Shown here: piece after piece, positions 3,399 through 18,491 of the stretch
Position numbering within the stretch: position 1 is the first letter of the stretch
How the letters are laid out: every line of letters begins with the position of its first letter
From: Patescibacteria group bacterium
GTDB taxonomy: Bacteria > Patescibacteriota > Patescibacteriia > UBA9934
Length of the DNA stretch: 64,000 nt
NCBI GenBank assembly: GCA_049296775.1
Contig: JBAQTB010000003.1
Coordinates: 140,766 to 204,765 of the forward strand
Reading direction: 5' to 3'
Notes under the pieces: model-generated
What the model was told of the DNA's origin: nothing
The model's input: only the letters and a program-made list of their open reading frames with translations
Database searches by the model: none
Made by a program: the position numbers and the translations under genes

Positions 3399-4874
3399 AT
3401 GAAAACTCCATATTACATCACAACCACCTTGCCGTACGTGAATGCTGAACCGCATATTGGTTTTGCCTTAGAAATTGTTCAGGCTGACATGCTGGCACGC
3501 ATTCAGCGCTTGCGTGGTGATGAGGTGATTTTTAATACGGGTACAGATGAACATGGTCAGAAGATTTACAAAAAAGCTTTAGAAGCCGGGATTGAGCCTA
3601 AGGCGTATTGTGATGGTTACGCGGAGAAGTTTCATGAGCTTAAGGAGCTCTTGAATTTGACTTACACCAATTTCATTCGGACTACGGATGATAAGCATGT
3701 CGCCGCTGCTCAGGAGTTTTGGAAGCGGTGCGATGCCAATGGTGACATTTACAAAAAACAGTACCAGACCAAGTATTGTGTGGGTTGTGAGCTCGAAAAA
3801 ACCGATTCCGAACTCGTTGACGACCGTTGTCCGATTCACCCCAAGATGGAGATTGAATTGCGGGATGAGGAGAACTATTTTTTCCGTTGGTCTAAATACC
3901 AACAGCCATTGCTTGACTACTACGCGGCACATCCGGACTTTGTGATGCCGACTGCTAAGTTTAACGAGATCAAGAATTTCGTGGCGGCTGGGCTGAACGA
4001 TTTCAGTATCTCGCGCCTCAAGGACAAGATGCCGTGGGGAATTGCAGTGCCGGGAGACGAAGAGCATGTCATGTACGTGTGGTTTGACGCACTAGTCAAT
4101 TATATTTCGACTCTCGATTGGTTCGCAGTAACTTCAGCGCAGGGGGGAGGCGATGTGAGCGAATCGTTTGAAAAGTTTTGGCCAGGCGTTCAAGTAGCTG
4201 GGATCGACAACTTACGTCAACAGTCTGCCATGTGGCAGGCCATGTTATTGTCCGCGGGTTTGCCATTGTCTAAACAGATCTTCATTCATAGTTTTATTAC
4301 CGTGGATGGTCAGAAGATGAGTAAGTCGCTGGGTAACGTCATCGGACCCAAGGATTTGGTGGCGATGTATGGCACGGATGCTGTCAGATATTACTTGTTG
4401 CGGGAAATGCCGTACGGGACCGATGGCGATTACTCCGCCGGTCGGATGGAAGAACGCTTTGCTGAGCTCGCTAATGACCTAGGTAATTTGATGGGCCGGG
4501 TCGCGGCTATGAGCATTAAGTACTTTGACGGCGAGGTCGACAAAGTACCGTTCAATCATGCTGAGTTGGATGTCCGGATGGGGGAGGCGCTCAAGCATTA
4601 CGATTTCAAAGCTTACATCGACACCGTGTGGACAGTAGTGAACGCGGCTAACTTAAAAATTCAAACTGAGGAACCGTTCAAACTCGCTAAAACTGACGCG
4701 GACGCGGCTAAGAAATCTTTGTCTGAGCTAGCTGCAATGATCGTTTGGATTGGTTATGCGCTCTCGCCGGTGATCCCGACGGCGGCCGATGAGATTTTGC
4801 GGCGTTATACTGGTGACAAGCTCATTCATGGCGAACCTCTGTTCCCACGTAGAGATCAAGAGCTTAACACCTAA
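3399..4874 (+). CDS. metG: Methionyl-tRNA synthetase, short form lacking the C-terminal tRNA-binding extension
   Basis: 'PYVNAEPHIGFA' HIGH-class motif, 'KMSKSLGN' motif, zinc knuckle 'CVGCE...CPIHP'. Confidence 0.9.
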   Translation: MKTPYYITTTLPYVNAEPHIGFALEIVQADMLARIQRLRGDEVIFNTGTDEHGQKIYKKALEAGIEPKAYCDGYAEKFHELKELLNLTYTNFIRTTDDKHVAAAQEFWKRCDANGDIYKKQYQTKYCVGCELEKTDSELVDDRCPIHPKMEIELRDEENYFFRWSKYQQPLLDYYAAHPDFVMPTAKFNEIKNFVAAGLNDFSISRLKDKMPWGIAVPGDEEHVMYVWFDALVNYISTLDWFAVTSAQGGGDVSESFEKFWPGVQVAGIDNLRQQSAMWQAMLLSAGLPLSKQIFIHSFITVDGQKMSKSLGNVIGPKDLVAMYGTDAVRYYLLREMPYGTDGDYSAGRMEERFAELANDLGNLMGRVAAMSIKYFDGEVDKVPFNHAELDVRMGEALKHYDFKAYIDTVWTVVNAANLKIQTEEPFKLAKTDADAAKKSLSELAAMIVWIGYALSPVIPTAADEILRRYTGDKLIHGEPLFPRRDQELNT

Positions 4875-4878
4875 ACTT

Positions 4879-5361
4879 GTGAACCCATTGATTATCGACA
4901 TCGTCTTGGCCGTCATCGCCGTGGTTTTGATTTGGAACGGCTATAGACAAGGCTTTATTCGGGCGGCTGGGAATTTGCTCGGACTAGTCATTAGCATTGC
5001 GGTGGGTATTTGGGGTGTGACCTGGCTAGAACATTTGACCGGCTTTAATTTAACCGGTAACCCCGTGACCTTTGTAGCGGTGTTTTTGGTTCTGACGATC
5101 ATAGTTAGTCAGTTACTGCGTCTGGTGGTCTCGGGCCTGGATTTGATGCGCAGAGCTTTGTCGATTATTCCGTTTGTGGGTTTAATCAATAGTTTACTCG
5201 GCACGGTGTTGGGTTGCGTACAGGCGGCAGTGTTTATTGCGCTCGTGGCGTACGTGAGTTTCCAGTTTTTGCCAGTTGGGGAGGTGAAACAGACCGTGCT
5301 CGGTTCATACGTGGTTGGACAGGCGATCACGCTTGAGAAGACTTTTGGAATTTTGCGTTAG
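4879..5361 (+). CDS. CvpA family membrane protein
   Basis: 'IDIVLAVIAVVLIWNGYRQGFIRAAGNLLGLVISIAVGI' matches the CvpA N-terminus; the track ORF starts at 4789 inside metG, so an in-frame GTG at 4879 just after the metG stop is the more likely start. Confidence 0.55.
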   Translation: MNPLIIDIVLAVIAVVLIWNGYRQGFIRAAGNLLGLVISIAVGIWGVTWLEHLTGFNLTGNPVTFVAVFLVLTIIVSQLLRLVVSGLDLMRRALSIIPFVGLINSLLGTVLGCVQAAVFIALVAYVSFQFLPVGEVKQTVLGSYVVGQAITLEKTFGILR

Positions 5362-5362
5362 T

Positions 5363-6247
5363 ATGCCGTTGAAATTTATTGATACTCATTGTCACGTGCA
5401 TTTTCAGGCGTATACAGAAGATGTTGATGCTGTTGTCCAGCGCGCGCTGGAGAGTGGAGTGGGCATGATTACCGTTGGGACGCAATCAACTACGAGTAAG
5501 AACGGCATTACTTTGGCGGAGAAGTACGACGGGGTGTGGTGCACGATTGGGTTGCATCCTAACCATTTGCATGCGCAGGATTTTCTTGATGAGAACGAGC
5601 TCCCGCCAGGAGTTGTCGATGACCTTAACGAGCATGACGGGCCTGCGCATATTAAGACAAGAGCGGAGCGTTTTGATCCGGAGTACTATCGAGAGCTCGC
5701 TAAACATCCTAAAGTGGTGGGGATTGGGGAGTTGGGTTTGGATTACTATCGCGTGCCGCCGGGGGTGGAGCTTGAGCAACTGAAAGCTGATCAACAAGCT
5801 CAAGCGCGCGAGCAATTGCGTTTTGCAACCGAGGTCGATAAGCCGGTGGTGATTCATTGTCGTGATGCGCACGCTGACCAGGCGCGCTTGCTGGAGGAGG
5901 AGATTGCCGTTGGTGGCTTGAGCCGCCGCGGCGTGATTCATTGTTTCACTGGGACCCCGGAGGAAGCCAAGCGCTACGTTGATTTAGGTTTTTATATTTC
6001 GTTTTCTGGGATTGTGACTTTTGGTAAGAATGTCATGGCGAGCGCTAAGAGTGTGCCGCTGAATAGATTGTTAATCGAAACAGATTCACCGTATTTAACC
6101 CCAGCACCCTTTAGAGGCCAGCGGAATGAGCCGGCGTACGTGGAGCACATCGCTGCCAAGATCGCGGAGTTGCACGGCGTGAGCGTAGATGAAGTAGCCC
6201 GCATTACCACCCAAAATGCGTGTAATGTTTTCAGACTCTCGATCTAA
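5363..6247 (+). CDS. tatD: TatD family metal-dependent hydrolase/DNase
   Basis: 'FIDTHCHVHF' N-terminal motif plus 'GLHPNH', 'IGELGLDY', 'VIHCRDA', 'ETDSPYL'; in-frame ATG at 5363 preferred over the track start 5315, which overlaps cvpA. Confidence 0.85.
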   Translation: MPLKFIDTHCHVHFQAYTEDVDAVVQRALESGVGMITVGTQSTTSKNGITLAEKYDGVWCTIGLHPNHLHAQDFLDENELPPGVVDDLNEHDGPAHIKTRAERFDPEYYRELAKHPKVVGIGELGLDYYRVPPGVELEQLKADQQAQAREQLRFATEVDKPVVIHCRDAHADQARLLEEEIAVGGLSRRGVIHCFTGTPEEAKRYVDLGFYISFSGIVTFGKNVMASAKSVPLNRLLIETDSPYLTPAPFRGQRNEPAYVEHIAAKIAELHGVSVDEVARITTQNACNVFRLSI

Positions 6248-6267
6248 TGACTCTAAATGTACTTTAC

Positions 6268-6296
6268 TTGACTTTTTTAGCTATTTTACCTAAGCT
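6268..6296 (+). promoter_or_regulatory. Candidate sigma70-type promoter for the atpF-led operon
   Basis: TTGACT (6268-6273), 17-nt spacer, TAAGCT (6291-6296), about 50 nt upstream of the first operon gene. Confidence 0.25.
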
Positions 6297-6347
6297 TGGG
6301 GCGTATTTTTGCAAGCTTTTTCTGGTTGAAGGGGTAAATATCAAGTT

Positions 6348-6884
6348 ATGCCAACAGACACGCAAACAGCTGCTGACGTGGGTGGATCAACTCAAGCTGC
6401 AAATATTAATGGTTTGCCGGTGCAAACCTTGGCCATGGTGTTATTGGCGGTGTGGGCAGTGGTGTTAGTGTCTAGGCGATTTTTGCCAAAACCGATCAAA
6501 CGTTTGACGGACGATCAAGTCCAGCGCATTGAAGAAAGTTTACAGACCACACAAGCCTTGGAGAAAAGATTGCGCGAGATCGAAATTGAAAGAGCGGAGG
6601 TGATTAAACAGGCCAGGGTAGAAGCCCTGGAAATTCGGAAACAGGCTGAGGCTGACGCAGTTATTCGCAAACAGGAGATGTTGGACATGGCGCGTCAGGA
6701 GGTCGAAAAGGTGATTCAGTCGGGTAAATTACTCCTAGAGCAGGAGCGCACTGCGATGCTGATTGCTGTCCGCCGAGACTTGGTTGATATTGCGGTGAAG
6801 GCTTCCGCTAAAATTGTGACCGATGGTTTGACGGTGCAGCGATCCCAATCTTTAGCCGAAGAGATGGTGCGTAAACTGACCTAG
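6348..6884 (+). CDS. atpF: F-type ATPase F0 subunit b (stator stalk)
   Basis: One N-terminal TM helix then a long charged helix, 'RIEESLQTTQALEKRLREIEIERAEVIKQARVEALEIRKQAEADA...', co-linear with subunit b. Confidence 0.7.
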   Translation: MPTDTQTAADVGGSTQAANINGLPVQTLAMVLLAVWAVVLVSRRFLPKPIKRLTDDQVQRIEESLQTTQALEKRLREIEIERAEVIKQARVEALEIRKQAEADAVIRKQEMLDMARQEVEKVIQSGKLLLEQERTAMLIAVRRDLVDIAVKASAKIVTDGLTVQRSQSLAEEMVRKLT

Positions 6885-6886
6885 GT

Positions 6887-7276
6887 ATGTCTAAGGACTT
6901 TAAAGTGTTGGCCGACAAGATTGTTAAAGATACGGCTGACTATGCTGCGGCAGATTTGAAAGTGTACCTAGAGGGAGTGGTGGAGCACTTAGCTAGCCGC
7001 GGACAGTTGTTGGAGTGGCGGCAGCTTGAGAAAGAATTGCATGCGGCTTGGAAGCGCAAGCACGGTGCCGCTAAGCTCACGGTGGCCTCGGCGCATCCGT
7101 TGACTGAGACGGCGCTCAAGCATTTAGAAGCTTTGGCACCGGGAGCGGAGTTTGTGCAGGTAGTGGATGAGCGTTTGATGGCGGGTGCGATTGTACGCTT
7201 GGATGATTACCGATTAGACGGGACGGTACTGGGAGCGTTGACGCGGTTAAAGCAGCAATTACGTTATGGTAAATAA
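6887..7276 (+). CDS. atpH: F-type ATPase subunit delta (OSCP), short form
   Basis: C-terminus 'VVDERLMAGAIVRLDDYRLDGTVLGALTRLKQQL' matches the delta/OSCP C-terminal block (E. coli '..[25 protein letters not shown]..'); 129 aa. Confidence 0.7.
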   Translation: MSKDFKVLADKIVKDTADYAAADLKVYLEGVVEHLASRGQLLEWRQLEKELHAAWKRKHGAAKLTVASAHPLTETALKHLEALAPGAEFVQVVDERLMAGAIVRLDDYRLDGTVLGALTRLKQQLRYGK

Positions 7277-8066
7277 GCTAGACATCATCACAGCTTTGCG
7301 CGAACAGGTGCAAACCTTTAAGGCGCAAGCGCATGCCGAAAATGTCGGTACGGTTTTAACGGTGGTGGCTGGGGTGGTGACGTGTAGTGGTTTAGCTGGG
7401 GTGAAGCAATTTGAGGTGGTCGATTTTGGTCCGGGGTTAACTGGGCTCGTGGTTGGTTTAGCTGAGGAGTACGTCACGGTGGTGGTGCTGGGAACAGCAG
7501 ACGGTATTAAAGCAGGAGACACAGTGCGGCAGTCTGGGGCGGGGTTAAGTTTGCCGGTGTCAGAGTCCTTGTGGGGACGCGTTGTGAATGTGCTTGGGCA
7601 ACCGGTGGATGGTTTGGGGGAGATTCTTGCCGCACAGACCGAGCCAATTACTTTAAAGCCAGATTCAAGTTTGTCGTGCCAACGCTTGCAGGTTGAGAAG
7701 AGCTACGCTGCGGCTGAAGTTTTGCGGGTGGTGCAGGAGGGTAAGACGCAGGGGTTGAAGAGTGTGGTCGTGACCATTGGTGAACGCACGGCTAGTTTGG
7801 CGCAGTTGAAAGGAGCCTTAGAGGCGGCGGGTTGCTTGCAAGAGACTTTATTAGTCGTGGCTGGTGCTGCTGAGCCGGTAGCCTTGCGCTATTTGGCGCC
7901 GTTTAGCGCGGAAGCCGTGACGCGATATTTACTGCGGTTAGATGACAAGTTACAATTAGTTTTTGTGGATTTAGCTGCGCATACGCTGGTGAGTCAGAGT
8001 TGGCAGCAGTTGCTAGGCGCAGGAGCTGTTGAGCCCGTCACCTCCGCTCAGTTATTTTTGGATTAA
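7266..8066 (+). CDS. F1 alpha-subunit-like protein, truncated (266 aa), Walker A reduced to 'VVQEGKT', no C-terminal helical domain
   Basis: N-terminal beta-barrel region aligns with AtpA ('ENVGTVLTVVAGVVTCSGL...GRVVNVLGQPVDGLGEIL'); 'VVVTIGERTASL...LLVVAGAAEPVALRYLAPFSAEA' matches AtpA 'IYVAIGQKAST...[21 protein letters not shown]'; about 30 aa spanning the P-loop are missing. Confidence 0.7.
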   Translation: MVNKLDIITALREQVQTFKAQAHAENVGTVLTVVAGVVTCSGLAGVKQFEVVDFGPGLTGLVVGLAEEYVTVVVLGTADGIKAGDTVRQSGAGLSLPVSESLWGRVVNVLGQPVDGLGEILAAQTEPITLKPDSSLSCQRLQVEKSYAAAEVLRVVQEGKTQGLKSVVVTIGERTASLAQLKGALEAAGCLQETLLVVAGAAEPVALRYLAPFSAEAVTRYLLRLDDKLQLVFVDLAAHTLVSQSWQQLLGAGAVEPVTSAQLFLD

Positions 8067-8071
8067 ATTTT

Positions 8072-9190
8072 GTGGTCAAAAATTTTGTTGCCCAAGTTGG
8101 AGTTAATCAGGTCGATGTCCGGTGCCCGGCTGATGCGCCGTCTTTGTTGAGTGTCTTGGCGGTTAGTAATGGTGACCAGGAATTGCTGTTAGAGGTAGTC
8201 GCGTATTTAGGGGGAGGCTTGGTACGTACTTTGCCGCTCGGGTCGACGACTGGCTTACAGCGTGGGTTAGAGGTTAGATTTGTGAGTAAGAGTTTAAGCG
8301 TTCCGGTTGGTCATGAGCTGCTTGGCAGGCGTATTAATGCACTGGGAAAACCGTTAGACGGGATGGCACCAGTGCAGACTAAGCAATTTGCAGTGAGCCG
8401 TGGCGTGGCCCCAAAGTTAGCTGAGGTAGTTTCCCCGACTAAAATCTTTAGAACTGGAGTGGGTGTGATCGATTTACTCTTTCCGATTCCAGAGGGAGGT
8501 TTGGTCGCCTTGCAATCAAAAACAGGCGTCAGTGCATTGTTTACGCAAGTTTTGCGGGCGTCTGAGGCTAAGTGTGTTTACGTTCTAACCAATGCACGGT
8601 CTAAGCAGGTTGCAGAAGTCATGACGACCTTGGAGCAGGCCCAGGTGATTGCTAAGGCGGTGGTGGTGACGAGTGGCGTGGGTGAGGTGACGGCGCTACA
8701 TAATCAAGCCGTTGACACTGCCTTAACTGTGGCTGAGTCTTTGCGGTCAGTGGCCGGGGTGAGTTTGTGGCTTGATAGTGCAGCAGGTTTAAGCGCGGCC
8801 GCCATGGAGCGCATGGTGTCGACTGCGGCCGGGCCGCTCACGACTTTCTTGCTGGGTGCGCCGCTTGCGAGTTTGGCTACCGACGTGGTGACAGTTGTAC
8901 ATTTTGATGGGGAGTCTAGCGAGTTGGTTGATATCAAGTCTTCACATTCGCATTGGCTAACTGCCAAACAAGTGGGAGCTGAACATTTTGAGGTCGCCAA
9001 TCAGGTGCTGGAGATTTTACGCATGTCAGTCCAGATGAAGGTGGGGGAGAGAGCGCCTGATCCAGCGGTAATCGCTAAAGCTGACAGACTGTGGAGCTAC
9101 TTGCGCGAGTCTAGGGTCGAGATATCAGAGACTGAGGCTTATATTTCGCAGTTAGTGTCTAGGTGTAGAGCTGTTCTGGCTGGGGAGTAA
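8072..9190 (+). CDS. F1 beta-subunit-like protein, truncated (372 aa), catalytic P-loop replaced
   Basis: 'VRTLPLGSTTGLQRGLEV...VPVGHELLGRRINALGKPLDG' aligns with AtpD N-terminus; 'TGVGVIDLLFPIPEGGLVALQSKTGVSAL' aligns with AtpD '[30 protein letters not shown]' but GGAGVGKT is lost. Confidence 0.7.
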   Translation: MVKNFVAQVGVNQVDVRCPADAPSLLSVLAVSNGDQELLLEVVAYLGGGLVRTLPLGSTTGLQRGLEVRFVSKSLSVPVGHELLGRRINALGKPLDGMAPVQTKQFAVSRGVAPKLAEVVSPTKIFRTGVGVIDLLFPIPEGGLVALQSKTGVSALFTQVLRASEAKCVYVLTNARSKQVAEVMTTLEQAQVIAKAVVVTSGVGEVTALHNQAVDTALTVAESLRSVAGVSLWLDSAAGLSAAAMERMVSTAAGPLTTFLLGAPLASLATDVVTVVHFDGESSELVDIKSSHSHWLTAKQVGAEHFEVANQVLEILRMSVQMKVGERAPDPAVIAKADRLWSYLRESRVEISETEAYISQLVSRCRAVLAGE

Positions 9191-9191
9191 A

Positions 9192-9779
9192 GTGATTGCC
9201 AACTGGTGGCAAGCAGCGTATACTTTTGCCAATCAAAAAGTGTTGCGTATGGCTTGGTTGCGCCTGTTGAATCTGTTGTTCTTTGGCCCCAAAGTGACGG
9301 CGTCAAAGAAAAACTATACGGAGACTGAGGGGCGGGAGTTTGCTTTACTTGGAGCGGAGTTACGCGCCTTATTGGCGACTACTCGGTTTGGCAGATCATT
9401 GCGAATTCTCACTGTCTCGGGCGGGTCAAGTAATGCCGAAGAGAGTGAACTCCGAGCTTTAACTAACGCGTATTACGATATCGACCGTTTCGGGTTGAGC
9501 TTTGTGGCTTCTCCCCGGCACGCCGATATCTTATTTGTTACTGGGCCAGTCACGCGTAATTTTGCCGGTGTGCTGAAGGCGGTGTATGCCGCCGTGCCAC
9601 AACCGTGTTTGGTGGTGGCGATTGGGGATGGTGCGTGTACGGGTGGCATTTGGAAAGATTCGTATGCGGTGGTGGGTCCGGTGGCGGCGGTGATCCCGGT
9701 GAATTTGTGTATCCCGGGCGACCCACCTAACCCGACGCAAATTTTACGCGAGTTACTTGGCGCGTTGCGCTCTACCTAA
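9192..9779 (+). CDS. NuoB/HycG-like (hydrogenase small subunit/complex I 20 kDa family) with three of four N2-cluster cysteines replaced
   Basis: 'SPRHADILFVTGPVTRNFAGVLKAVYAAVPQPCLVVAIGDGACTGGIW...IPGDPPNP' aligns with NuoB '[21 protein letters not shown]...ISMGACANSGGMY...IPGCPPRPE'; the CC pair is 'SS', 'GCPP' is 'GDPP'. Confidence 0.7.
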   Translation: MIANWWQAAYTFANQKVLRMAWLRLLNLLFFGPKVTASKKNYTETEGREFALLGAELRALLATTRFGRSLRILTVSGGSSNAEESELRALTNAYYDIDRFGLSFVASPRHADILFVTGPVTRNFAGVLKAVYAAVPQPCLVVAIGDGACTGGIWKDSYAVVGPVAAVIPVNLCIPGDPPNPTQILRELLGALRST

Positions 9780-9784
9780 AATGT

Positions 9785-11803
9785 ATGTCAGGACAAGTGA
9801 TTGCAATTTGCTTGAGTATGTCAGTGCTGGCGTCTGTCATGGCGGCCGCAGCGAGTTTTTGGCCGAGCGGTAAATCGCATAAGCTGACTAGTTGGCTGTT
9901 GGCGGTGGGAGGAGTTTTGGGAGCGGTGGCGGGTTTGCAAATAATGTTGGGTGAGACGCAGACGGTGATGTTGCCGTATTCCTTGTACCCAGTGACAGCT
10001 GTGGATCCGGTCAGTACCTGGCCGTGGTTTTTTGACATGGTCTTTGGCCTAGATAGATTTTCCGCGATTTTTTATACTTTGATCTCGGTGGTGACCGCGA
10101 TGGTCATGGTGTACTCAGTTAAGTTTATCGAAATTAAACGTGAGGCGTATAACTTAAAACTGTACGGGTGCCTTGTGGCGTGTTTGGTGTTGGGTATGCA
10201 GGGGGTTTTACTGTCTACCAACATTTTCGGCTTCATTGGTTTTTGGGAATTAATGGTGTTCTGTATTTGGGGACTATTTTTAGTGACGGGGAGCGTGTCT
10301 GGACAGAGAGCTGGGTTTACCTATTTAGCCATTGCTCACCTGGGCACCGGAGCGATCCTGGCCGGTTTGTTTATTTTGTCTAACGGCGGCTTGCTGAATG
10401 ATTTTGTCACGATTAGCTCAGCAGCCGCAGACTTACCGATGCCGATTTTTGCTGTGGCCTGCGCGTTAATCTTGCTGGGGTTCGGGAGTCAATTAGGGGT
10501 AGTGCCGTTTCATGTGTGGCTGCCGCAATTACAGGTAGAGACGCCCACACCCGCCGCTGCCTTGATTACCGGAGCTGGGTTGGGTGTAGGGGTTTATGGG
10601 TTACTGAGGACGGTGATCTTTTTAGTCCCCACTGTACCTGGCTGGTTTGTGGGCTGTGTTTTGGGGTTTGGGATCTTGACGGCGCTTGTGGGGAGTTTAC
10701 ATGCGGTGGTCGATTTAGACGTAAAACAGACTTTGGGTTATTTTAGCTTAAAAAATGTCGGGTTGCTGTTAATTTTTATTGGCACGGGTTTATTGGCCGG
10801 TTTGCAGGGTAATGCCGAGTTAACGGAAACCGCCTTGTACGCCGGTTTATTTTTATGTTTAGCGCAAGGGGTGCTGCAGACTGCCATGGGGTTGGTGGCT
10901 GGGGTTGCTGAGGAAGCTTTTAAAACGCGAGAGTTAGATCTGATGGGTGGCTTGGCTCAATCTATGCCCAAACTATCTGTAGCGGCGTGCGTGATTGTTT
11001 TAGCAGCTGTAGGACTGCCGCCTTTTGCGCCGTTTATTGCAGAGTGGTCAGTGGTGCAGGCAGCGGTCGGGATTATGGCTACAGCTGAACCGGTGCTCGT
11101 GGTGTCATTGGTGGGTGTGGTAGTGGCGGTGACTTTTGTGACGGGGGTGAGTTTGATGGCGGGCGTTAAGTGGTACGCCGGGATTTTCTTGGCTAGACCA
11201 CGGCAAGTTGTAAGCACAGAGCTGAAAGAACTTGATGGCTATGTCTTAGGGCCAATTGCGGTGGCGGCAGTTTTGAGCGTGTTATTGGCGATGTTCGCCC
11301 CTAGGCTGTTGGCTAAAATGGGTGCCATCCATTTAGCGCCACCTAGTTTGCTGCATCCGGCTTTGGAGACAAGCGGGGGAGGATTAGCTCCGAGCCTGTT
11401 GACCTTAGTGATGGCTGGTGGCGTCTTGGCGCTGCTACTGTTACGGCAATTAATTGTGCGTTCGGGTTCTGTTCGGGTGGTGCCGGCGTGGGATCACGGG
11501 CAGGTGGTGGGTGCCAAAAATGAATATTCAATTACGGGTTTAACCGCGCCGTTTAGGTATTTTTTCCGATTCTTTTTACGGACTCAGAAAGTTGTGGACG
11601 TCCAGGCTGTGCAACTAACTAATCCGTGGGTGGTCACCAAGCACGTGACGTTGGTGGCGGTGCGCCAGTTGACTTACGTGCGGCTTGGTGAGGCTATCAC
11701 CAGGGTTGCTAGTTGTTTGGCGTATTTACAAAATGGCAGTGTCCAGTTTTACGTCTTGCTCATGATTGTGGCTTTGCTCATAACTATGGTGATCGCTTTA
11801 TGA
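9785..11803 (+). CDS. HyfB/NuoL-like antiporter-type membrane subunit (672 aa)
   Basis: Multi-TM protein with 'FHVWLPQLQVETPTPAAALITGAGLGVGVYGLL', a diverged 'WLPDAHxGPTPVSALIHAATMV' NuoL/M/N/HyfB signature; same length as E. coli HyfB. Confidence 0.75.
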   Translation: MSGQVIAICLSMSVLASVMAAAASFWPSGKSHKLTSWLLAVGGVLGAVAGLQIMLGETQTVMLPYSLYPVTAVDPVSTWPWFFDMVFGLDRFSAIFYTLISVVTAMVMVYSVKFIEIKREAYNLKLYGCLVACLVLGMQGVLLSTNIFGFIGFWELMVFCIWGLFLVTGSVSGQRAGFTYLAIAHLGTGAILAGLFILSNGGLLNDFVTISSAAADLPMPIFAVACALILLGFGSQLGVVPFHVWLPQLQVETPTPAAALITGAGLGVGVYGLLRTVIFLVPTVPGWFVGCVLGFGILTALVGSLHAVVDLDVKQTLGYFSLKNVGLLLIFIGTGLLAGLQGNAELTETALYAGLFLCLAQGVLQTAMGLVAGVAEEAFKTRELDLMGGLAQSMPKLSVAACVIVLAAVGLPPFAPFIAEWSVVQAAVGIMATAEPVLVVSLVGVVVAVTFVTGVSLMAGVKWYAGIFLARPRQVVSTELKELDGYVLGPIAVAAVLSVLLAMFAPRLLAKMGAIHLAPPSLLHPALETSGGGLAPSLLTLVMAGGVLALLLLRQLIVRSGSVRVVPAWDHGQVVGAKNEYSITGLTAPFRYFFRFFLRTQKVVDVQAVQLTNPWVVTKHVTLVAVRQLTYVRLGEAITRVASCLAYLQNGSVQFYVLLMIVALLITMVIAL

Positions 11804-12753
11804 GCCCAATTGTTTTAACGATTTTGCAAGTTTGTATGGCGTGCGCCTTGGCGCCGATGACCTTGGGGTTGGTAGCTTTTTTCAAGGCCAGGTTGTTGGG
11901 TAGACACGGTTTACCACCTTGGTCACCGTACTTCAATTATCGAACACTCCTCAAGAAAGAAACTTTGATTCCCGCCTCGGCGTCTTGGCTGTTTGTGGCT
12001 GCGCCCATCATGGTGTTGCTCAGTAGTGGGTTTTTGGTGATGGTGTTGCCGTTATTGACTACTAGCGGCGTGTTCAGCAGCTTATCTAATTTTCTAGTCA
12101 TTGCTGGCGTGCTGGCACTCGGGTCAGTCTTTGTGGTGTTAAGCGGTTTAGACACCGGGAACACGTACTCAGGTTTGGGGTCTAGCCGTCACTTAGTTAT
12201 GGTCGGTTTGTTGGAGCCGACAGTCATTTTAACTTTCGCGGCTTTGGCGTTGTCTACGGGGAGTGGAGAGATCGTCGGCATGCTTGAACATGCGGCGGTG
12301 ACGGGGCAATTGATTGGAACCGCGCCGTATCTGGCCTTGTCACTGCTAGCGTTGGTGCTGGTGTCATTAGCAGAAAATTCACGCTACCCAATTAGTGAGC
12401 CCGGCGCTGAGGCCACCTTAGCCATGGGTCAGGAGGTGACTACTTTTGATTACTCCGGCCCGTTACTGGCCATGCTGGAATACGCGGCCGCGTTGAAGCT
12501 GACAGTGTTTGCGTTGTTGGTAGCGAATTTCATTTTACCGCGGCCGTTACTGACAGATTATGCCGGGGTGGGTGATGTTATGTCTGTCGTCCTGGCCACT
12601 GTGTTGAAATTAATCCTCATGATGATTGCCTTGGCGATTTTAGAATCGTCAACGACTAAGATGAGATTTTACCGCGTTCAAGAGTTTTTGACCGGAGCCT
12701 TTTTCATGGCGTTGTGTGGGTTAGCTTTGGCACTTTTAATGCAACGTTTATGA
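11800..12753 (+). CDS. HyfC/HycD/NuoH-like membrane subunit
   Basis: 'FFKARLLGRHGLPPWSPYFNYRTLLKKE' resembles NuoH/HycD 'ERKxxAxMQxRxGPNxVGxxGLLQPxADxLKLLxKE'; ATG at 11800 overlaps the upstream stop (ATGA); the track ORF starts earlier at 11713. Confidence 0.65.
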   Translation: MSPIVLTILQVCMACALAPMTLGLVAFFKARLLGRHGLPPWSPYFNYRTLLKKETLIPASASWLFVAAPIMVLLSSGFLVMVLPLLTTSGVFSSLSNFLVIAGVLALGSVFVVLSGLDTGNTYSGLGSSRHLVMVGLLEPTVILTFAALALSTGSGEIVGMLEHAAVTGQLIGTAPYLALSLLALVLVSLAENSRYPISEPGAEATLAMGQEVTTFDYSGPLLAMLEYAAALKLTVFALLVANFILPRPLLTDYAGVGDVMSVVLATVLKLILMMIALAILESSTTKMRFYRVQEFLTGAFFMALCGLALALLMQRL

Positions 12754-13412
12754 TCTCTAATTTAACGACCCCTGATGCTGTCAGTATTGCGTGGTCAGTC
12801 ATGTTTTTAGTTGGCGCGTTTTTAGCGGGTGGCAAGTTTAGGCTAGGACAAATTCTCAGATATTACATCTTTCAATCTTTGTGTTTGGTGGGGCTAATGT
12901 TGAGCTTGGCTGAGGTAGCTGATTGGCACGCCTACCTAAGTGCCGCGAGCGTCTTAGTCTTTAGAGCGGTGTTAATGCCGGGACTGTTGATGCTGACTGC
13001 GAATCAATCAGGGGCTAGCGGTCGGTTGTTGTCATTTGTACGGCCAGCGCCTTCATATTTTGTGTCAGGGGTGGCGTTGCTAGCGGCGGTGTTGACCGGA
13101 ATTGCCATCACTCCGCATTTGCCGCAAGCAAATATCATGTTGGTGGTGACGGCCTTTGCTGGAATTTACATGGGCTTAGTCATGGCTGCCATTCGACGAG
13201 ATACTTATTCGCAAGTGATCGGCTTTTTGACCTTTGTGAACGGGATCACGATTTTGGCCGTGACTACGGTTGGCGGTTGGTCGATATTGGAGGAGCTGGG
13301 TATGTTTGTGACAGTGTTGTTGGCCGTATTGTTGTTTAGCTTGTTGTCCCGTAAGTTGAAAGAGCTGTACGCCGTGGAAGATACGGGCATTTTAAAGGAG
13401 TTAGTTGATTAG
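12750..13412 (+). CDS. HyfE-like small polytopic membrane subunit
   Basis: About 220 aa hydrophobic protein at the hyfE position between the NuoH-like and NuoM/N-like genes; ATGA start/stop overlap at 12750. Confidence 0.45.
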   Translation: MISNLTTPDAVSIAWSVMFLVGAFLAGGKFRLGQILRYYIFQSLCLVGLMLSLAEVADWHAYLSAASVLVFRAVLMPGLLMLTANQSGASGRLLSFVRPAPSYFVSGVALLAAVLTGIAITPHLPQANIMLVVTAFAGIYMGLVMAAIRRDTYSQVIGFLTFVNGITILAVTTVGGWSILEELGMFVTVLLAVLLFSLLSRKLKELYAVEDTGILKELVD

Positions 13413-13415
13413 CTT

Positions 13416-14894
13416 ATGTTGCCTGTCTTAATTGCAGTCGTCCTCATCTTAGCCACGGCGAGTGCGTACTTGCCGGTGGGGGAGCGCGTCATCAGGCGAT
13501 TAGGTTTAGCGTTGTCTTTAGTCAGTGTCGGTTTAGTGGGGGCAGCTGTGGTGGGTTGGTTTTTGGGAGTGGATCTAGGCGGTACGGGCCAGGCTTGGCA
13601 GTTGGATAATGTCACCGCTTGCGTGTTGGGATTGCTAGCGATAATTTCCGCTACGACTTCGGTAGTCGCACATCGTTACCTAGAGCAGGAGCTCAAAGAG
13701 AATTTACTTTCGATTACAGAAGTTAAGCATTACTACCGGTTGGTGCCGTTGTTTACGGCGGCTATGTATGTGGCGGTGTGGAGTAATAACGTGGCGGTGA
13801 TCTGGTTGTCCCTCGAGGCCACCACCTTAGCGACGACTTTACTGATTGCGTTTTACCGCAAACGATCAGCCTTGGAAGCGGCCTGGAAATACTTAGTGTT
13901 GAACGCCTTTGGCATGGGTCTCGCCTTAGTCGGTTTGATCTTGTTCGTGTTCGCGTTGACAGGGGGAGCGGACCACGGCACTCAGTTCATGACGAGCTTG
14001 CAGGAGTTGGCAGTGACTGAAGGCGTCAACATCGCACTCTTGCGTTGGGCGTTTGTCTTCTTGTTCATTGGCCTGGGGGCTAAGCTGGGCTTGGTACCCA
14101 TGCACGCCTGGTTACCAGATGCCCATAGCAAAGCGCCATCGCCGGTGTCTGCACTCATGGCAGGCTTGCTCTTGAATGTCGTTTTCATTACCTTGTTGCG
14201 CTTTAGACAGATCGTAGATTTAGCTTTGCTGGACCAGGGTCAGTGGAGCGGGCAATTCTTTTTAGTCTTTGGGTGTTTATCTCTGACTCTGCCTGCGTTA
14301 ATCATGTTGATTCAGAAGAACTACAAACGTTTTTTGTCTTACTCTAGCATTCAGGCCATGGGTGTCATGATGTTTGCAGTTGGTTTGGGTCCAGCGGGCC
14401 TCATCCCGGCGCTCATGTATTTACCTGGTCACGCCTTGCTGAAGAGTGGTTTGTTTTTTGGCGCGGGGGAGATTTTTAATACGTACAAAACTACGGCCTC
14501 TGAAGATATTCCTGATTTGTGGTATCTCTTACCCAAGACAGCGACGTTATTTTTGCTCTTAGCTGTGTGCTTGGTAGGTGTGCCGCCGTCTGCGATTTTT
14601 GTTAGCCAGACCTTGATGTTGGGGTTTGGGTTACGGGAACATTTGGCGATCACCTTATGGGCGACGGTCATGCTGACAGTGGCGGTTTTGACATTGAGCT
14701 ATCAGGTGTATCGTTTAGTCTTTAAATTACCGCTTAAAAAGGCGGAGGTACCCAGGGAGCCATGGAAGCTGGTGCATGTAGGTATGGGTTTGCATTTGCT
14801 GTTGGCGCTCGCCCTCGGACTGTGGTTCTTGACTCCAAGTGGCTTGAACTTCGTTTTAACTTTAGCTGAGGAGCTTAACTCTAACTTACTATGA
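13416..14894 (+). CDS. HyfF/NuoM/NuoN-like antiporter-type membrane subunit
   Basis: 'PMHAWLPDAHSKAPSPVSALMAGLLLNVVFITLLRF' is the canonical NuoL/M/N motif, with the conserved His of 'SALIHAATMV' replaced. Confidence 0.8.
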   Translation: MLPVLIAVVLILATASAYLPVGERVIRRLGLALSLVSVGLVGAAVVGWFLGVDLGGTGQAWQLDNVTACVLGLLAIISATTSVVAHRYLEQELKENLLSITEVKHYYRLVPLFTAAMYVAVWSNNVAVIWLSLEATTLATTLLIAFYRKRSALEAAWKYLVLNAFGMGLALVGLILFVFALTGGADHGTQFMTSLQELAVTEGVNIALLRWAFVFLFIGLGAKLGLVPMHAWLPDAHSKAPSPVSALMAGLLLNVVFITLLRFRQIVDLALLDQGQWSGQFFLVFGCLSLTLPALIMLIQKNYKRFLSYSSIQAMGVMMFAVGLGPAGLIPALMYLPGHALLKSGLFFGAGEIFNTYKTTASEDIPDLWYLLPKTATLFLLLAVCLVGVPPSAIFVSQTLMLGFGLREHLAITLWATVMLTVAVLTLSYQVYRLVFKLPLKKAEVPREPWKLVHVGMGLHLLLALALGLWFLTPSGLNFVLTLAEELNSNLL

Positions 14895-16501
14895 GTACTA
14901 AAGACTTCTTAGCGGATATTTTGGGGATCGTGGTAAGTGAGGAGCGGCCTGGCCAATTAACGGCAAGTGTAGCTAAGGACAAGTTTGCTGACGCAATTGA
15001 TGAACTTGTGAATGCGCGGGGTTTGGTAGCGGGAGTCGAGGCGGAGAGTCAGGAAGGGATGGCGGGAGTTGGTTTGGCGTTAGTGCACATGTTTGCCACG
15101 GATGAGCGGGGGGAGTCTGGGGGGTATGGCGTGCACGTTTTAATTCATGACGATACTGGGCATGCTTGGTTAATGTTGTCGACTAGAGTGTCTGCGGATG
15201 AGCCGAGTTTTCCGGCGGTGACTCCCAGGGTCATGGCAGCGTATTGGTATGAGCGCTACATTCATGACATGTTTGGGATTCGACCTGAGGGGCATCCGGA
15301 TTTGCGCCGCTTGGTGCATCATGAGCATATGCCAAATGAGACTTACCCGTTAAGAAAAGATTTTAAGTGGAACGCTGAGCTTGAGACCGCGGAGAATGCG
15401 TACCCACTCCAAGTTGCCACGGGTGCTGGGGTGTTTGAGCTGACCGTAGGGCCAGTACATGCCGGTGTGGCGGAAGCGGCGCAATTTTGTTTAAGCGTGG
15501 CGGGGGAGCGCGTGATTAGTCTGGACACCAAAGTCTTCTTTGCGCACAAGGGGCTAGAGAAGTTGTTGGAGGGGAAAGAGCCGCTTAGCGTTTTGCCGGT
15601 GATTGAGCGGATAGCGGGAGACGCTGCGCCGTCACATGCCTTGGCATTTTCACAAAGTCTAGAAGCGCTGGCAGACTGTGAGGTGACAGACAGAGCCAAG
15701 GGGCTCAGGACGCTTTTAAATGAGCTGGAACGCATCACACTTCACGTGCATGACCTTGCAGCCGTGGGGGAGGCTGGGACGGGCTACGCGGTCTTAGCGA
15801 GTCACGGGTTTAGGATCGAAGAACGTTTAAGACGTTTGTCTGATGAGCTGTTTGGAAATCGTTTTTGGCGTGGGGTGATTGTACCCGGGGGAGTAGTGCG
15901 GGATTTGAATGCGAATGAGCTCAAGAAAATTGCGATTACAGTGAACGAGGCGATTGAAGAATTGGAGGATTTGGTGAAGTTGGCGTTGAAGTCTGATGGT
16001 TTAAGAGATCAACTGGAGGAAAAGGGTATTTTAAAGCGCGAGGCCGCCTTGGTTTATGGTGCGGTGGGTGTGGTGGCCAGGGCTTCCGGCATCGACAGAG
16101 ATGTCAGACGCGATCATCCTTACGCCGCTTATGACCGCTTTGTGCCGACGATTTCGATTAAGACCAGCGGGGACGTCTATGCCCGACTTCGTCAGCGGGT
16201 TGATGAACTGCTAGAAAGTCAGCGTTTGCTCCAAGAATTGTGTAAGTCTCCCGGCGAGGGGCGATTTTTTGTGAAATGTCAGCCCAAGGATGGGCGAGCT
16301 TGGAGTGCTGTAGAAGGTGGCAGGGGTGAAACTGTGCACGTTATTAGTATCAAGGCCGGGCTGATTGATCGTTACACCATCCGTGGCCCATCCTTTTGCA
16401 ATTGGCCGCTCTTAGCCGAGCTCATGCCAGACAATACTTTATCCGATTTCCCTTTGTGCCTGAGCTCAATGAGTTTGAGTGCTGCTGATTGCGATCTTTA
16501 G
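14891..16501 (+). CDS. Fused NuoC-NuoD / HyfG/HycE-like large subunit lacking the NiFe-ligating cysteines
   Basis: NuoC-like 'ERYIHDMFGIRPEGHPDLRRL'; NuoD/large-subunit-like 'ELTVGPVHAGVAEAAQF'; the N-terminal 'RxCGxCxxxH' site reads 'ERIAGDAAPSHALA' and the C-terminal 'DPCxxCxxH' site reads 'SAADCDL'. Confidence 0.75.
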   Translation: MSTKDFLADILGIVVSEERPGQLTASVAKDKFADAIDELVNARGLVAGVEAESQEGMAGVGLALVHMFATDERGESGGYGVHVLIHDDTGHAWLMLSTRVSADEPSFPAVTPRVMAAYWYERYIHDMFGIRPEGHPDLRRLVHHEHMPNETYPLRKDFKWNAELETAENAYPLQVATGAGVFELTVGPVHAGVAEAAQFCLSVAGERVISLDTKVFFAHKGLEKLLEGKEPLSVLPVIERIAGDAAPSHALAFSQSLEALADCEVTDRAKGLRTLLNELERITLHVHDLAAVGEAGTGYAVLASHGFRIEERLRRLSDELFGNRFWRGVIVPGGVVRDLNANELKKIAITVNEAIEELEDLVKLALKSDGLRDQLEEKGILKREAALVYGAVGVVARASGIDRDVRRDHPYAAYDRFVPTISIKTSGDVYARLRQRVDELLESQRLLQELCKSPGEGRFFVKCQPKDGRAWSAVEGGRGETVHVISIKAGLIDRYTIRGPSFCNWPLLAELMPDNTLSDFPLCLSSMSLSAADCDL

Positions 16502-17024: not shown

Positions 17025-17801
17025 ATGGCGACTGATCGCGCTGAAACATTGTTGACAGAGGGGCGGGTGTGGCTACCGGTGGCGGGTTTACAGGAGGTAT
17101 TGACCGAGGTGCTACGTCGGTTTTCTGACGATGTCTTGGCTAATATCGACTGGGATGACCTCAGAGCAGGTAAATACACCTTCTGGTGTCAGGAGCCGCA
17201 GGAGCAGGGCACTGACGAGCCGGATGATGGACTGATCTACAAGTGCGCAACCGACAAGAGTGATCCTTCCATTGCTCGAACCGGCAAGCGACCAGATCAC
17301 AAAGTGTATATGCAGTGGCGTTGGCGTACTGAACGCTTACTGCGGTCTCGACCAAGTCTGTATAAGCTCGAGTTCAAGGTCTTCTTTGAGATCATGGCTG
17401 AGCTTCAAGAGTTGTTAACTCCGCATATCGACAAGATGTGGCGAGAGCTCCAACTCTTGCGGCCTGAGCTGCAGGGCTTTGAGGTCGATCAGGAGCTGAG
17501 TAGCATACGCGTGATGAGGTACTTGGGAGTCCGGGACGATGAGTCGAGCCTTATCGGTAAGACGCACACGGATCGTGGAGCGTTTACTTGCCACCTGGGC
17601 GACAGTGCTCCGGGGCTAGTAGTTCAGAACTCCAAGGGCGAGTTTGAGTTGGTGCCAACAACTCCTGAACAAACGCTGATTTTTACAGGTGATGCTTTGG
17701 CACGCCTCACGGATCGCCCGGCAGTGGTGCACGGTGCGGCGGCAGGCGCAGATGCGAAGAGGTCGATAGTGGTGGCGTTTGTGTGGATTAAGGCTAAGTA
17801 G
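17025..17801 (+). CDS. 2-oxoglutarate/Fe(II)-dependent oxygenase superfamily protein
   Basis: 'GKTHTDRGAFTCHLGDSAPGLVVQN...GEFELVPTTPEQTLIFTGDALARLT...AVVHGAA' fits the HxD...H 2OG-FeII_Oxy core (HTD...GGLQV...W..V.P..G.LVVN.GD). Confidence 0.55.
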   Translation: MATDRAETLLTEGRVWLPVAGLQEVLTEVLRRFSDDVLANIDWDDLRAGKYTFWCQEPQEQGTDEPDDGLIYKCATDKSDPSIARTGKRPDHKVYMQWRWRTERLLRSRPSLYKLEFKVFFEIMAELQELLTPHIDKMWRELQLLRPELQGFEVDQELSSIRVMRYLGVRDDESSLIGKTHTDRGAFTCHLGDSAPGLVVQNSKGEFELVPTTPEQTLIFTGDALARLTDRPAVVHGAAAGADAKRSIVVAFVWIKAK

Positions 17802-17888: not shown

Positions 17889-18491
17889 TCAGGAGGAAGG
17901 GTTGGCGATCTCACGAATGATCTGGGAAAGCACATTCACAGTCACGCCGAGGTAGTCGGCTAGGTGACCAAGTTCGTCCTGGTCCGGATCAGCGACACTG
18001 CCATTCAAGAGCAGTCGTAGCTTGCTTGGTCCCAGGTCTGATCCAGCATGAGAGATGTACAGCTCTCTCAGATTGTTGTGATCGGGGATTTCTTGCAGGT
18101 AGGCCAGGACCGGGGTGTTGAGGTTGGGTCGGCCTGGAAAGTGGAAGGTAATATCGATCTTTGGGGAGGGGTTGGCGATCTCTCTGATGATCTTAGTGAG
18201 TACATTCACAGTCACGCCTAGGTAGTCGGCTAGGTGACCAAGTTCGTCCTGGTCCAGGTACGCGACGTTACCGTCTAACAGTAGGCGTAACTTTTTTGGT
18301 CCCAGGTCTGATCCAGCATGAGAGATGTACAGCTCTCTCAGATTGTTGTGATCGGGGATTTCTTGCAGGTAGGCCAGGACCGGGGTGTTGAGGTTGGGTC
18401 GGCCTGGGAAATTGGTGGTGATGTCGATTTTTCTAGGCGGTGGTTTTTCCTGTCTTTTACCTTCGTGATCGTCATCTCGTTTACGTTTCAT
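17889..18491 (-). CDS. Hypothetical protein with two near-identical tandem ~90-aa repeats, each resembling an XRE-type HTH
   Basis: Repeat units '...FPGRPNLNTPVLAYLQEIPDHNNLRELYISHAGSDLGP.KLRLLL.G.VA..DQDELGHLADYLGVTVNVL..IIREIANPS' occur twice; the tail 'DELGHLADYLGVTVNVL' resembles the end of HTH_XRE domains. Confidence 0.5.
   Translation of the reverse strand: MKRKRDDDHEGKRQEKPPPRKIDITTNFPGRPNLNTPVLAYLQEIPDHNNLRELYISHAGSDLGPKKLRLLLDGNVAYLDQDELGHLADYLGVTVNVLTKIIREIANPSPKIDITFHFPGRPNLNTPVLAYLQEIPDHNNLRELYISHAGSDLGPSKLRLLLNGSVADPDQDELGHLADYLGVTVNVLSQIIREIANPSS
17897..18436. repeat. Intragenic tandem direct repeat, 2 x ~270 bp
   Basis: A 110-nt block (ggtcccaggtctgatccagcatgagag...gggtcggcctgg) is identical at 18028-18137 and 18298-18407; flanking parts of each unit are more diverged. 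Confidence 0.8.

Follow-up and report, generated by a model that had tools for sequence, protein, structure and literature searches.

Truncated, non-catalytic relatives of ATP synthase subunits alpha and beta beside subunits b and delta: a proposed stator remnant in a Patescibacteria genome

The alpha and beta subunits of ATP synthase are among the most conserved proteins known, and a few systems are described in which their family serves other ends or in which the enzyme has been reduced. In the type III export ATPase, FliH-FliI, a ring of alpha/beta-family proteins is tethered by a stalk homologous to b and delta, which provides an evolutionary precedent for stator-plus-ring modules outside ATP synthesis; FliI itself is an active enzyme, a homo-hexamer built around a central stalk, FliJ. 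The F1-like X0 ATPases of Mycoplasma (type 2/3, including the MMOB1660/1670 gliding motor and MSC_0618/0619) are likewise derived from alpha and beta and repurposed from ATP synthesis, and these enzymes are active, with intact Walker motifs and gamma-like partners of their own. In Cryptosporidium parvum the alpha and beta subunits are full length and have intact motifs. The mitosome of this eukaryote retains only alpha and beta of the ATP synthase (PMC7730227), a partial subunit set after reductive evolution that makes it the closest conceptual precedent for the locus described here, although b and delta are not part of that set. We analysed a 64 kb stretch of DNA (the window), part of a contig of at least 383 kb from an uncultured Patescibacteria metagenome-assembled genome (MAG), in which the genes of subunits b and delta are followed by those of two truncated relatives of AtpA and AtpD, here called alpha' and beta' (labelled hypothetical at NCBI, locus tags WAZ14_03495 and WAZ14_03500, on a contig of 383,515 bp). 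Unlike FliI, both are predicted to be inactive and are encoded without a central stalk. No description of catalytically dead, truncated alpha and beta kept alongside b and delta was found in the literature searched.

We propose that the locus is the in situ remnant of an F1Fo ATP synthase operon in a lineage without rotary catalysis, and that non-catalytic b, delta, alpha' and beta' are still translated and are kept for a structural purpose. We consider this reading probable, with considerable room for doubt. The four genes persist as intact, closely packed open reading frames (ORFs), arranged as follows.

6248-6347, plus strand: junction of TatD and atpF, 100 bp; the corresponding stretch of about 2.5 kb in relatives holds atpB (a), atpE (c) and three small ORFs
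6348-6884, plus strand: atpF, stator stalk subunit b, 178 aa (Pfam ATP-synt_B, 8.5e-13)
6887-7276, plus strand: atpH, subunit delta/OSCP, 129 aa (Pfam OSCP, 2.3e-10)
7266-8066, plus strand: alpha-like protein alpha', 266 aa, with N-terminal helix, beta-barrel crown and an incomplete nucleotide-binding domain
8067-8071, plus strand: junction of alpha' and beta', with about 210 C-terminal atpA codons and the whole of atpG (gamma) removed and the atpD start preserved
8072-9190, plus strand: beta-like protein beta', 372 aa, GTG start, a miniaturised three-domain F1-beta fold
9191-9248, plus strand: junction of beta' and NuoB, with atpC (epsilon) missing and a promoter-like site at 9196-9224

Of the complete F1Fo subunit set, the locus therefore has b and delta and lacks a, c, gamma and epsilon. 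In F1Fo structures the membrane helix of b contacts a, the C-terminus of b contacts delta, and delta contacts the N-terminal helix of alpha. As judged from the alignments, the retained subunits are exactly those with mutual stator contacts; the segments that face kept partners are conserved, and those that face lost partners or the nucleotide are not.

The original prediction, made from the DNA letters alone, held that beta' follows AtpD and then has its P-loop replaced and its GERTREG region made unrecognisable. Alignment to AtpD residues 3-253 agrees with this, QSKTGV standing in place of GGAGVGKT and NARSKQV in place of GERTREG. The P-loop Lys/Thr and the catalytic Glu are absent, the DELSEED region is degenerate, and about 63 further residues have been lost through about 11 in-frame deletions, leaving 372 residues compared with about 455 in the AtpD of relatives. 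The crown barrel is recognised by Pfam (PF02874, 4.6e-9), as is part of the ATP-synt_ab domain; the C-terminal helical domain gave no Pfam match (PF00306/PF22919), and a shortened helical remnant is seen in the AlphaFold 2 (AF2) model only. That model is a compact F1-beta fold (pLDDT 85.9, pTM 0.85, with pLDDT up to 95 in the crown), and Foldseek aligned it to solved F1 beta chains with TM scores of 0.83-0.85.

The loss is more severe in alpha', which has 266 residues where the AtpA of relatives has about 500. As predicted, it aligns with the N-terminal beta-barrel of AtpA and part of the nucleotide-binding domain: Pfam reports ATP-synt_ab_N (the crown barrel, PF02874, 2.2e-7) and only positions 36-118 of 213 of ATP-synt_ab, and residues 7-139 and 156-248 correspond to residues 8-140 and 183-275 of solved F1 alpha chains. 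About 26 residues around the P-loop are gone, and the protein ends about 20 residues past Walker B, without the arginine-finger region or any of the C-terminal helical domain; the absence of the latter, also predicted, follows from the alignments and from the lack of a Pfam PF00306/PF22919 match. The loss of the segment around Walker A was thus borne out, whereas the placement of 'QEGKT' as a P-loop vestige is ambiguous because the aligners disagree: it falls on 'NQKGQ', downstream of the P-loop, with HMMER and MAFFT but on 'QTGKT' in a global pairwise alignment. GxxxxGK[ST] is absent under either placement. In the AF2 model, built on a shallow alignment of nine sequences, the crown has pLDDT values of 67-85 and the remainder lies below 50.

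A regular-expression search found no Walker A motif ([GA]xxxxGK[ST]) in alpha', in beta' or in the six frames of 7000-9400, so that no intact copy lies elsewhere in either protein. The Walker and arginine-finger columns of the ATP-synt_ab alignments show that the catalytic features are gone, and the prediction that neither protein can bind or hydrolyse ATP canonically is upheld as far as motifs allow, with no Walker A and no catalytic Glu. Comparison with curated models points the same way. Against NCBIfam atpA (TIGR00962) alpha' scored 143 bits (cut-off 484) and against atpD (TIGR01039) beta' scored 126 bits (cut-off 463), and neither is therefore an equivalog. The pair also belongs neither to the Mycoplasma families (NF045863, NF045858, NF045934 and NF045936; 28-59 bits, cut-offs 520-850) nor to FliI/YscN (TIGR01026 and clade models, 48-76 bits, cut-offs 380-620; NCBIfam FliI models, 50-75 bits, cut-offs of about 590-640). 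By their sequences, alpha' and beta' are derived members of the F1 alpha/beta superfamily that fall outside every definition of a functional AtpA or AtpD.

The ancestry of the pair is evident from its genomic setting. We compared neighbourhoods by look-ups of NuoCD homologues and at 71 loci found through the NuoB-like protein in GTDB species genomes; loci of related Patescibacteria are given L-numbers (L009, L006, L019 and so on). Homologues of the NuoCD-like protein number in the hundreds among Patescibacteria, at 46-64% identity. About 35 Patescibacteria genomes, with annotations that include Uhrbacteria, Falkowbacteria, Moranbacteria and Parcubacteria, have full-length atpF-atpH-atpA-atpG-atpD-atpC directly upstream of the NuoB-like gene on the same strand. 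The full order at this locus in relatives is atpB-E-F-H-A-G-D-C; in L009 it runs TatD, ORFs of 178, 151 and 163 aa, atpB (290 aa), atpE (72 aa), atpF, atpH, and atpA onward. In relatives atpA (about 500 aa) and atpG (about 290 aa) precede atpD, and atpC (about 141 aa) stands between atpD and the NuoB-like gene. This synteny of atp and Nqo-like genes is found among loci L005-L047, e.g. L009 (4560-16000), L006, L014-L017, L019, L022-L030, L034-L039, L043 and L045-L047.

Compared with L009, the window lacks the approximately 2.5 kb between TatD and atpF that holds atpB and atpE, the 3' half of atpA, and the complete atpG and atpC genes, and it has internal in-frame deletions in atpA and atpD; beta' can be aligned from AtpD residue 3. 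The ATP synthases of relatives (L009, L006, L019) share the locus, with TatD upstream and the NuoB-like complex downstream, their b and delta are orthologous to those of the window (50-57% identity), as are the N-terminal domains of alpha and beta, and the beta fold is kept; the window differs in lacking a, c, gamma, epsilon, Walker A, the catalytic Glu and the Arg finger. Since the locus is the one that carries the atp operon in about 35 relatives, alpha' and beta' are, on the evidence of synteny and alignment, in situ descendants of atpA and atpD and not paralogues. Of the suggestion that they are structural pseudo-ATPase paralogues, the look of maintained structural proteins stands (codons, in-frame indels, hydrophobic core) and the paralogy falls, the ancestral atp locus being this one.

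Nor can they be subunits of a rotary ATPase, as the prediction supposed: tblastn with the proteins of relatives found no remnant of a, c, gamma or epsilon in the operon or in the 64 kb window, which was the scope of all gene-absence scans. From what the locus encodes, rotary catalysis and canonical nucleotide binding are judged impossible. A 73-aa ORF (6247-6468, plus strand) was considered as a c subunit and rejected, having no Pfam or NCBIfam match, overlapping the atpF start and being unlike the AtpE of L009; it is likely spurious. The 100-bp spacer between TatD and atpF also contains a weak promoter-like motif, TTGACT-N17-TAAGCT, below the threshold of the scanner.

The truncation is not conserved: no orthologue with these features was found among 1.84 billion representative proteins, in which an exhaustive phmmer search with beta' returned beta' itself and then ordinary AtpD and AtpA. 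Together with word-indexed searches, this rules out a conserved pseudo-ATPase family. Among conserved proteins, identity to the nearest relative reaches only about 60%. Decay across the clade was also considered, given an apparently broken atpD in L003 and L006, and was rejected because the break is a 100-N scaffold gap and not a pseudogene; because of the gap (L003 3215-3314; L006, H41-bin178_1), the gene caller reported a spurious minus-strand ORF and a fragment of 98 aa in place of atpD. Several loci (L007, L008, L019, L020, L031, L038, L045 and L060-L064) are titled 'uncultured Gammaproteobacteria', 'Bdellovibrionales' or 'Micavibrio' despite a typical Patescibacteria operon, and these MAGs are probably mislabelled or contaminated bins.

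The rates of divergence separate the four subunits sharply. The distance between the window and L009 is about equal to that between L019 and L009, so that the second pair shows what may be expected of the first. Amino acid identities were as follows, given as window versus L009 and then L019 versus L009 unless stated otherwise.

NuoCD: 59%; 61%
NuoM: 51%; 52%
HyfE-like protein: 52%; 50%
NuoB: 67%; 74%
Subunit b: 57%; 52%
Subunit delta: 53%; 48%
Subunit alpha: 38%; 81%
Subunit beta: 30%; 90%
Alpha 1-30 (delta-binding helix): 67%; L019 80%
Alpha crown, residues 31-98: 47%; L019 84%
Alpha P-loop segment, residues 141-190: 19%; L019 92%
Beta crown: window 46%; between functional lineages 74%
Beta 156-200: window 12%; between functional lineages 96-100%

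If the divergence of alpha and beta reflected neutral decay, b and delta would have been erased too. Both align to their L009 counterparts with no indels, delta at 52-53% identity, and the short delta (129 aa) is no sign of degeneration, since 127-146 aa is the norm of the clade in genomes with complete operons. Functional enzymes are most conserved in the nucleotide-binding core (84-100%) and least conserved in their N-terminal parts, an order that is inverted in the window. Residues invariant in the clade are preferentially kept in the crowns, both in alpha' (28/35 versus 25/91, p = 1.5e-7) and in beta' (25/43 versus 55/229, p = 1.8e-5).

A similar partition runs through b, and the C-terminus of delta is conserved as well. 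Residues 121-178 of b share 69-72% identity with L009 and L006, the nearest relatives, and 55-64% with L019 and L045 (53-72% among functional lineages), and for residues 91-129 of delta the values are 70-73% and 51-62%, respectively (59-70% for functional pairs). Ranges of 59-69% for the C-terminus of b and 59-62% for that of delta were also tabulated as the expectation between functional lineages, so that the values for the nearest relatives are normal or higher. No part of b is better conserved among functional relatives than the membrane segment (58-78%), yet in the window this segment (residues 25-60) is only 22-36% identical to theirs, and the N-terminal hydrophobic helix is retained though diverged.

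None of the usual marks of a pseudogene was seen in alpha' and beta': the ORFs are intact, all of the approximately 14 indels are deletions and every one is in frame, the codon score is normal, and the retention of residues is strongly non-uniform. The frame-specific codon score was 0.317 for alpha' and 0.211 for beta' (window genes, 0.263, standard deviation 0.061), with strongly negative values in the other frames. Columns that are hydrophobic in relatives are still hydrophobic in 77-94% of cases (background of about 48%), even at 20-25% identity, and overall about 80% of the hydrophobic-core columns are retained.

The proton channel (a), the rotor (c, gamma and epsilon), half of alpha at its C-terminal end and every catalytic residue of beta have been deleted or overwritten. 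In the proposed reading, the four remaining proteins would still be translated and would form a membrane-anchored, nucleotide-blind sub-complex, in which the C-terminus of b would bind delta, delta would bind the N-terminal helix of alpha', and the crown barrels of alpha' and beta' would hold a ring or a heterodimer together. Selection would now act on these contacts and on foldability, and no longer on catalysis, rotation or the contact of b with a. The role of such a sub-complex might be structural or scaffolding, at the membrane, and the co-encoded six-subunit Nqo-like complex is a candidate partner because the b helix has been re-modelled and the neighbourhood is conserved. A more specific version, in which the rotor-less stator has been exapted as a structural module docked through the re-modelled membrane helix of b on the complex-I-like complex, seems to us unlikely.

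Several observations weigh against a retained structural sub-complex. The degenerate proteins are known from a single genome, without any orthologue. The remnant of the nucleotide-binding domain in alpha' is poorly modelled (pLDDT below 50), the pLDDT of the beta' model may be inflated by an alignment built of canonical AtpD, and the retention of hydrophobic columns is favoured by the alignment method itself, which rewards hydrophobic-hydrophobic matches. L077, one of the closest relatives (64% identity in NuoCD), has a non-atp ORF at the atpC site upstream of NuoB, and ATP synthase is absent from many Parcubacteria, being present in 10 of 17 genomes (PMC4508563); given L077 and this common loss, the remnant could be a late stage of loss. 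The main rival accordingly is a non-functional relic on its way to complete loss, an abandoned ATP synthase whittled by deletions whose frames persist by chance or because premature stops would have polar effects on the genes downstream. Deletion-only indels are the signature of bacterial deletional bias and four of the eight subunits have already gone, which fits such a relic; yet b and delta are normally conserved and free of indels while alpha and beta lie about 60 percentage points under expectation, the region-specific retention agrees with the known stator contacts, codon usage is normal, the hydrophobic pattern is kept, and the chance that about 14 random indels would all be in frame is about (1/3)^14. 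The promoter-like site between beta' and NuoB further weakens the argument from polarity. We therefore regard the relic as possible but doubtful.

The normal conservation of b and delta would also be accounted for if they served a canonical ATP synthase encoded elsewhere, through duplication or horizontal acquisition, with alpha' and beta' redundant and decaying, and the contig, at 383 kb or more, extends well beyond the 64 kb scanned. However, a b subunit docking onto a canonical a would not be expected to show 22-36% identity in the very segment that makes this contact (58-78% in functional relatives), a redundant copy would have no need to keep the delta-binding helix of alpha' at 67% or the crowns, and in relatives this locus carries just one atp operon; we find this explanation improbable. 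Least credible of all, and in our view very remote, are nucleotide-dependent enzymes with a non-canonical site and an artefact of sequencing or assembly. Nucleotide binding in the absence of a canonical P-loop is known from V-type B subunits, and 'QEGKT' of alpha' could be a vestigial GKT, but beta' has neither the P-loop Lys/Thr nor the catalytic Glu, alpha' has no Arg finger, and there is no rotor for coupling. As for an artefact, an independent Logan assembly of SRR28012402 is 100% identical across 17,979 bp; a sequencing frameshift is therefore not the cause of the truncated ORFs. With tblastn, queries from relatives found no out-of-frame continuation of AtpA, G, D or C, so that no frameshift hides a full-length alpha or beta, and on this basis, together with the lack of a Walker A in any frame, an error of either kind was rejected as unlikely. 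A foreign insertion is likewise unsupported, since GC content and skews equal those of the flanks and the N-termini show clear orthology with their counterparts in relatives.

The remnant stands in a closely packed plus-strand gene series that runs from MetRS through the NuoC-NuoD fusion. Its other members are listed below.

3399-4874, plus strand: MetRS
4789-5361, plus strand: CvpA-like protein
5315-6247, plus strand: TatD
9249-9779, plus strand: NuoB-like small subunit (Pfam Oxidored_q6)
9785-11803, plus strand: NuoL-like protein (Pfam and gene calls)
11800-12753, plus strand: NuoH-like protein (Pfam and gene calls)
12750-13412, plus strand: 220-aa membrane subunit without a Pfam match (gene call)
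13416-14894, plus strand: NuoM-like protein (Pfam and gene calls)
14891-16501, plus strand: NuoC-NuoD fusion, like a hydrogenase large subunit, without the NiFe cysteines

The genes at 9249-16501 (NuoB, L, H, the 220-aa subunit, M and CD) encode a six-subunit Nqo- or hydrogenase-like complex typical of the candidate phyla radiation (CPR). Such a complex (Ehr-type) has already been described for CPR (PMC5581439), and the genes of the window agree with this six-gene set of a group-4-hydrogenase-like complex, without the Ni-binding Cys. With respect to the stator remnant, the complex is a conserved neighbour and a candidate partner and lies outside the remnant itself. Its subunits evolve at a normal rate: identity is 67-70% to relatives in the NuoB-like protein from 9249 onward, 41-57% to the closest relatives L006 and L009 in the NuoL-, NuoH-, 220-aa and NuoM-like subunits, and 56-64% to the closest relatives in the NuoCD fusion. 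The NuoB-like gene likely starts at ATG 9249 (MAWLRLLNLL), and the mechanical ORF begins at GTG 9192. The Nqo-like genes may have a promoter of their own, independent of the atp remnant, because the 57-bp leader in between (9192-9248) holds a promoter-like site at 9196-9224 (TTGCCA-17-TATACT, 10/12 positions, a match to consensus only). Three of the four iron-sulphur (FeS) cysteines are absent from the NuoB-like protein, as in all its CPR relatives. The CPR proteins (window and L006-L066) read GGS[ST]NAEE and IPGDPP, and the distant homologues L071, L073 and L075 read GSCNGCE and PGCPP. The N2-type FeS cluster thus appears to have been lost family-wide from CPR NuoB-like proteins, and the complex may perhaps have no redox cofactor at all, because these cysteines and the NiFe cysteines of the large subunit are both missing. 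The arrangement of atp and Nqo-like genes as a supra-operon suggests a functional coupling of the two membrane complexes; no discussion of this association was found in the literature searched.

A few other features of the window deserve mention. A PriA-like protein of 578 aa (45563-47299, plus strand) matches only the 3'-DNA-binding domain and, weakly, Helicase_C, and lacks the Walker A motif GxxxxGK[ST]; it may be another degenerate P-loop protein of this genome or a PriA variant typical of the clade. Between NuoCD and a UvrD/AddB-like helicase, where L004 has nothing, lie a gene for a 2OG-Fe(II) oxygenase (17025-17801), shared with L077, L002 and L076 at 33-42% identity, and a gene for a 200-aa HTH_3 protein (17889-18491, minus strand). 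The latter is the product of an internal tandem duplication: its two halves, each about 95 aa long, are nearly identical, and the repeated DNA lies at 18049-18070 and 18319-18340.

As far as these comparisons reach, the stator remnant is confined to one lineage, in which alpha and beta are down by 60-70% in sequence identity and have lost every catalytic element while their stator partners stayed constant. If the docked module were real, it would be the first pseudoenzyme complex derived from ATP synthase, and it would point to a physical association, already present in relatives, between ATP synthase and the Nqo-like complex, whose genes are syntenic in at least 35 CPR genomes. If the four proteins do not assemble, the locus would be an uncommon case in which the loss of ATP synthase from Patescibacteria can be seen in detail, and it would be of use in annotation, since automated pipelines could score such a genome as 'ATP synthase present'. 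If they do, it would be a natural experiment on which contacts are sufficient for a sub-complex of peripheral stalk and crown, it would show how a molecular machine is taken apart or put to new use as a genome shrinks, and it would bear on the role of the Nqo-like complex in a CPR cell without chemiosmotic ATP synthesis.

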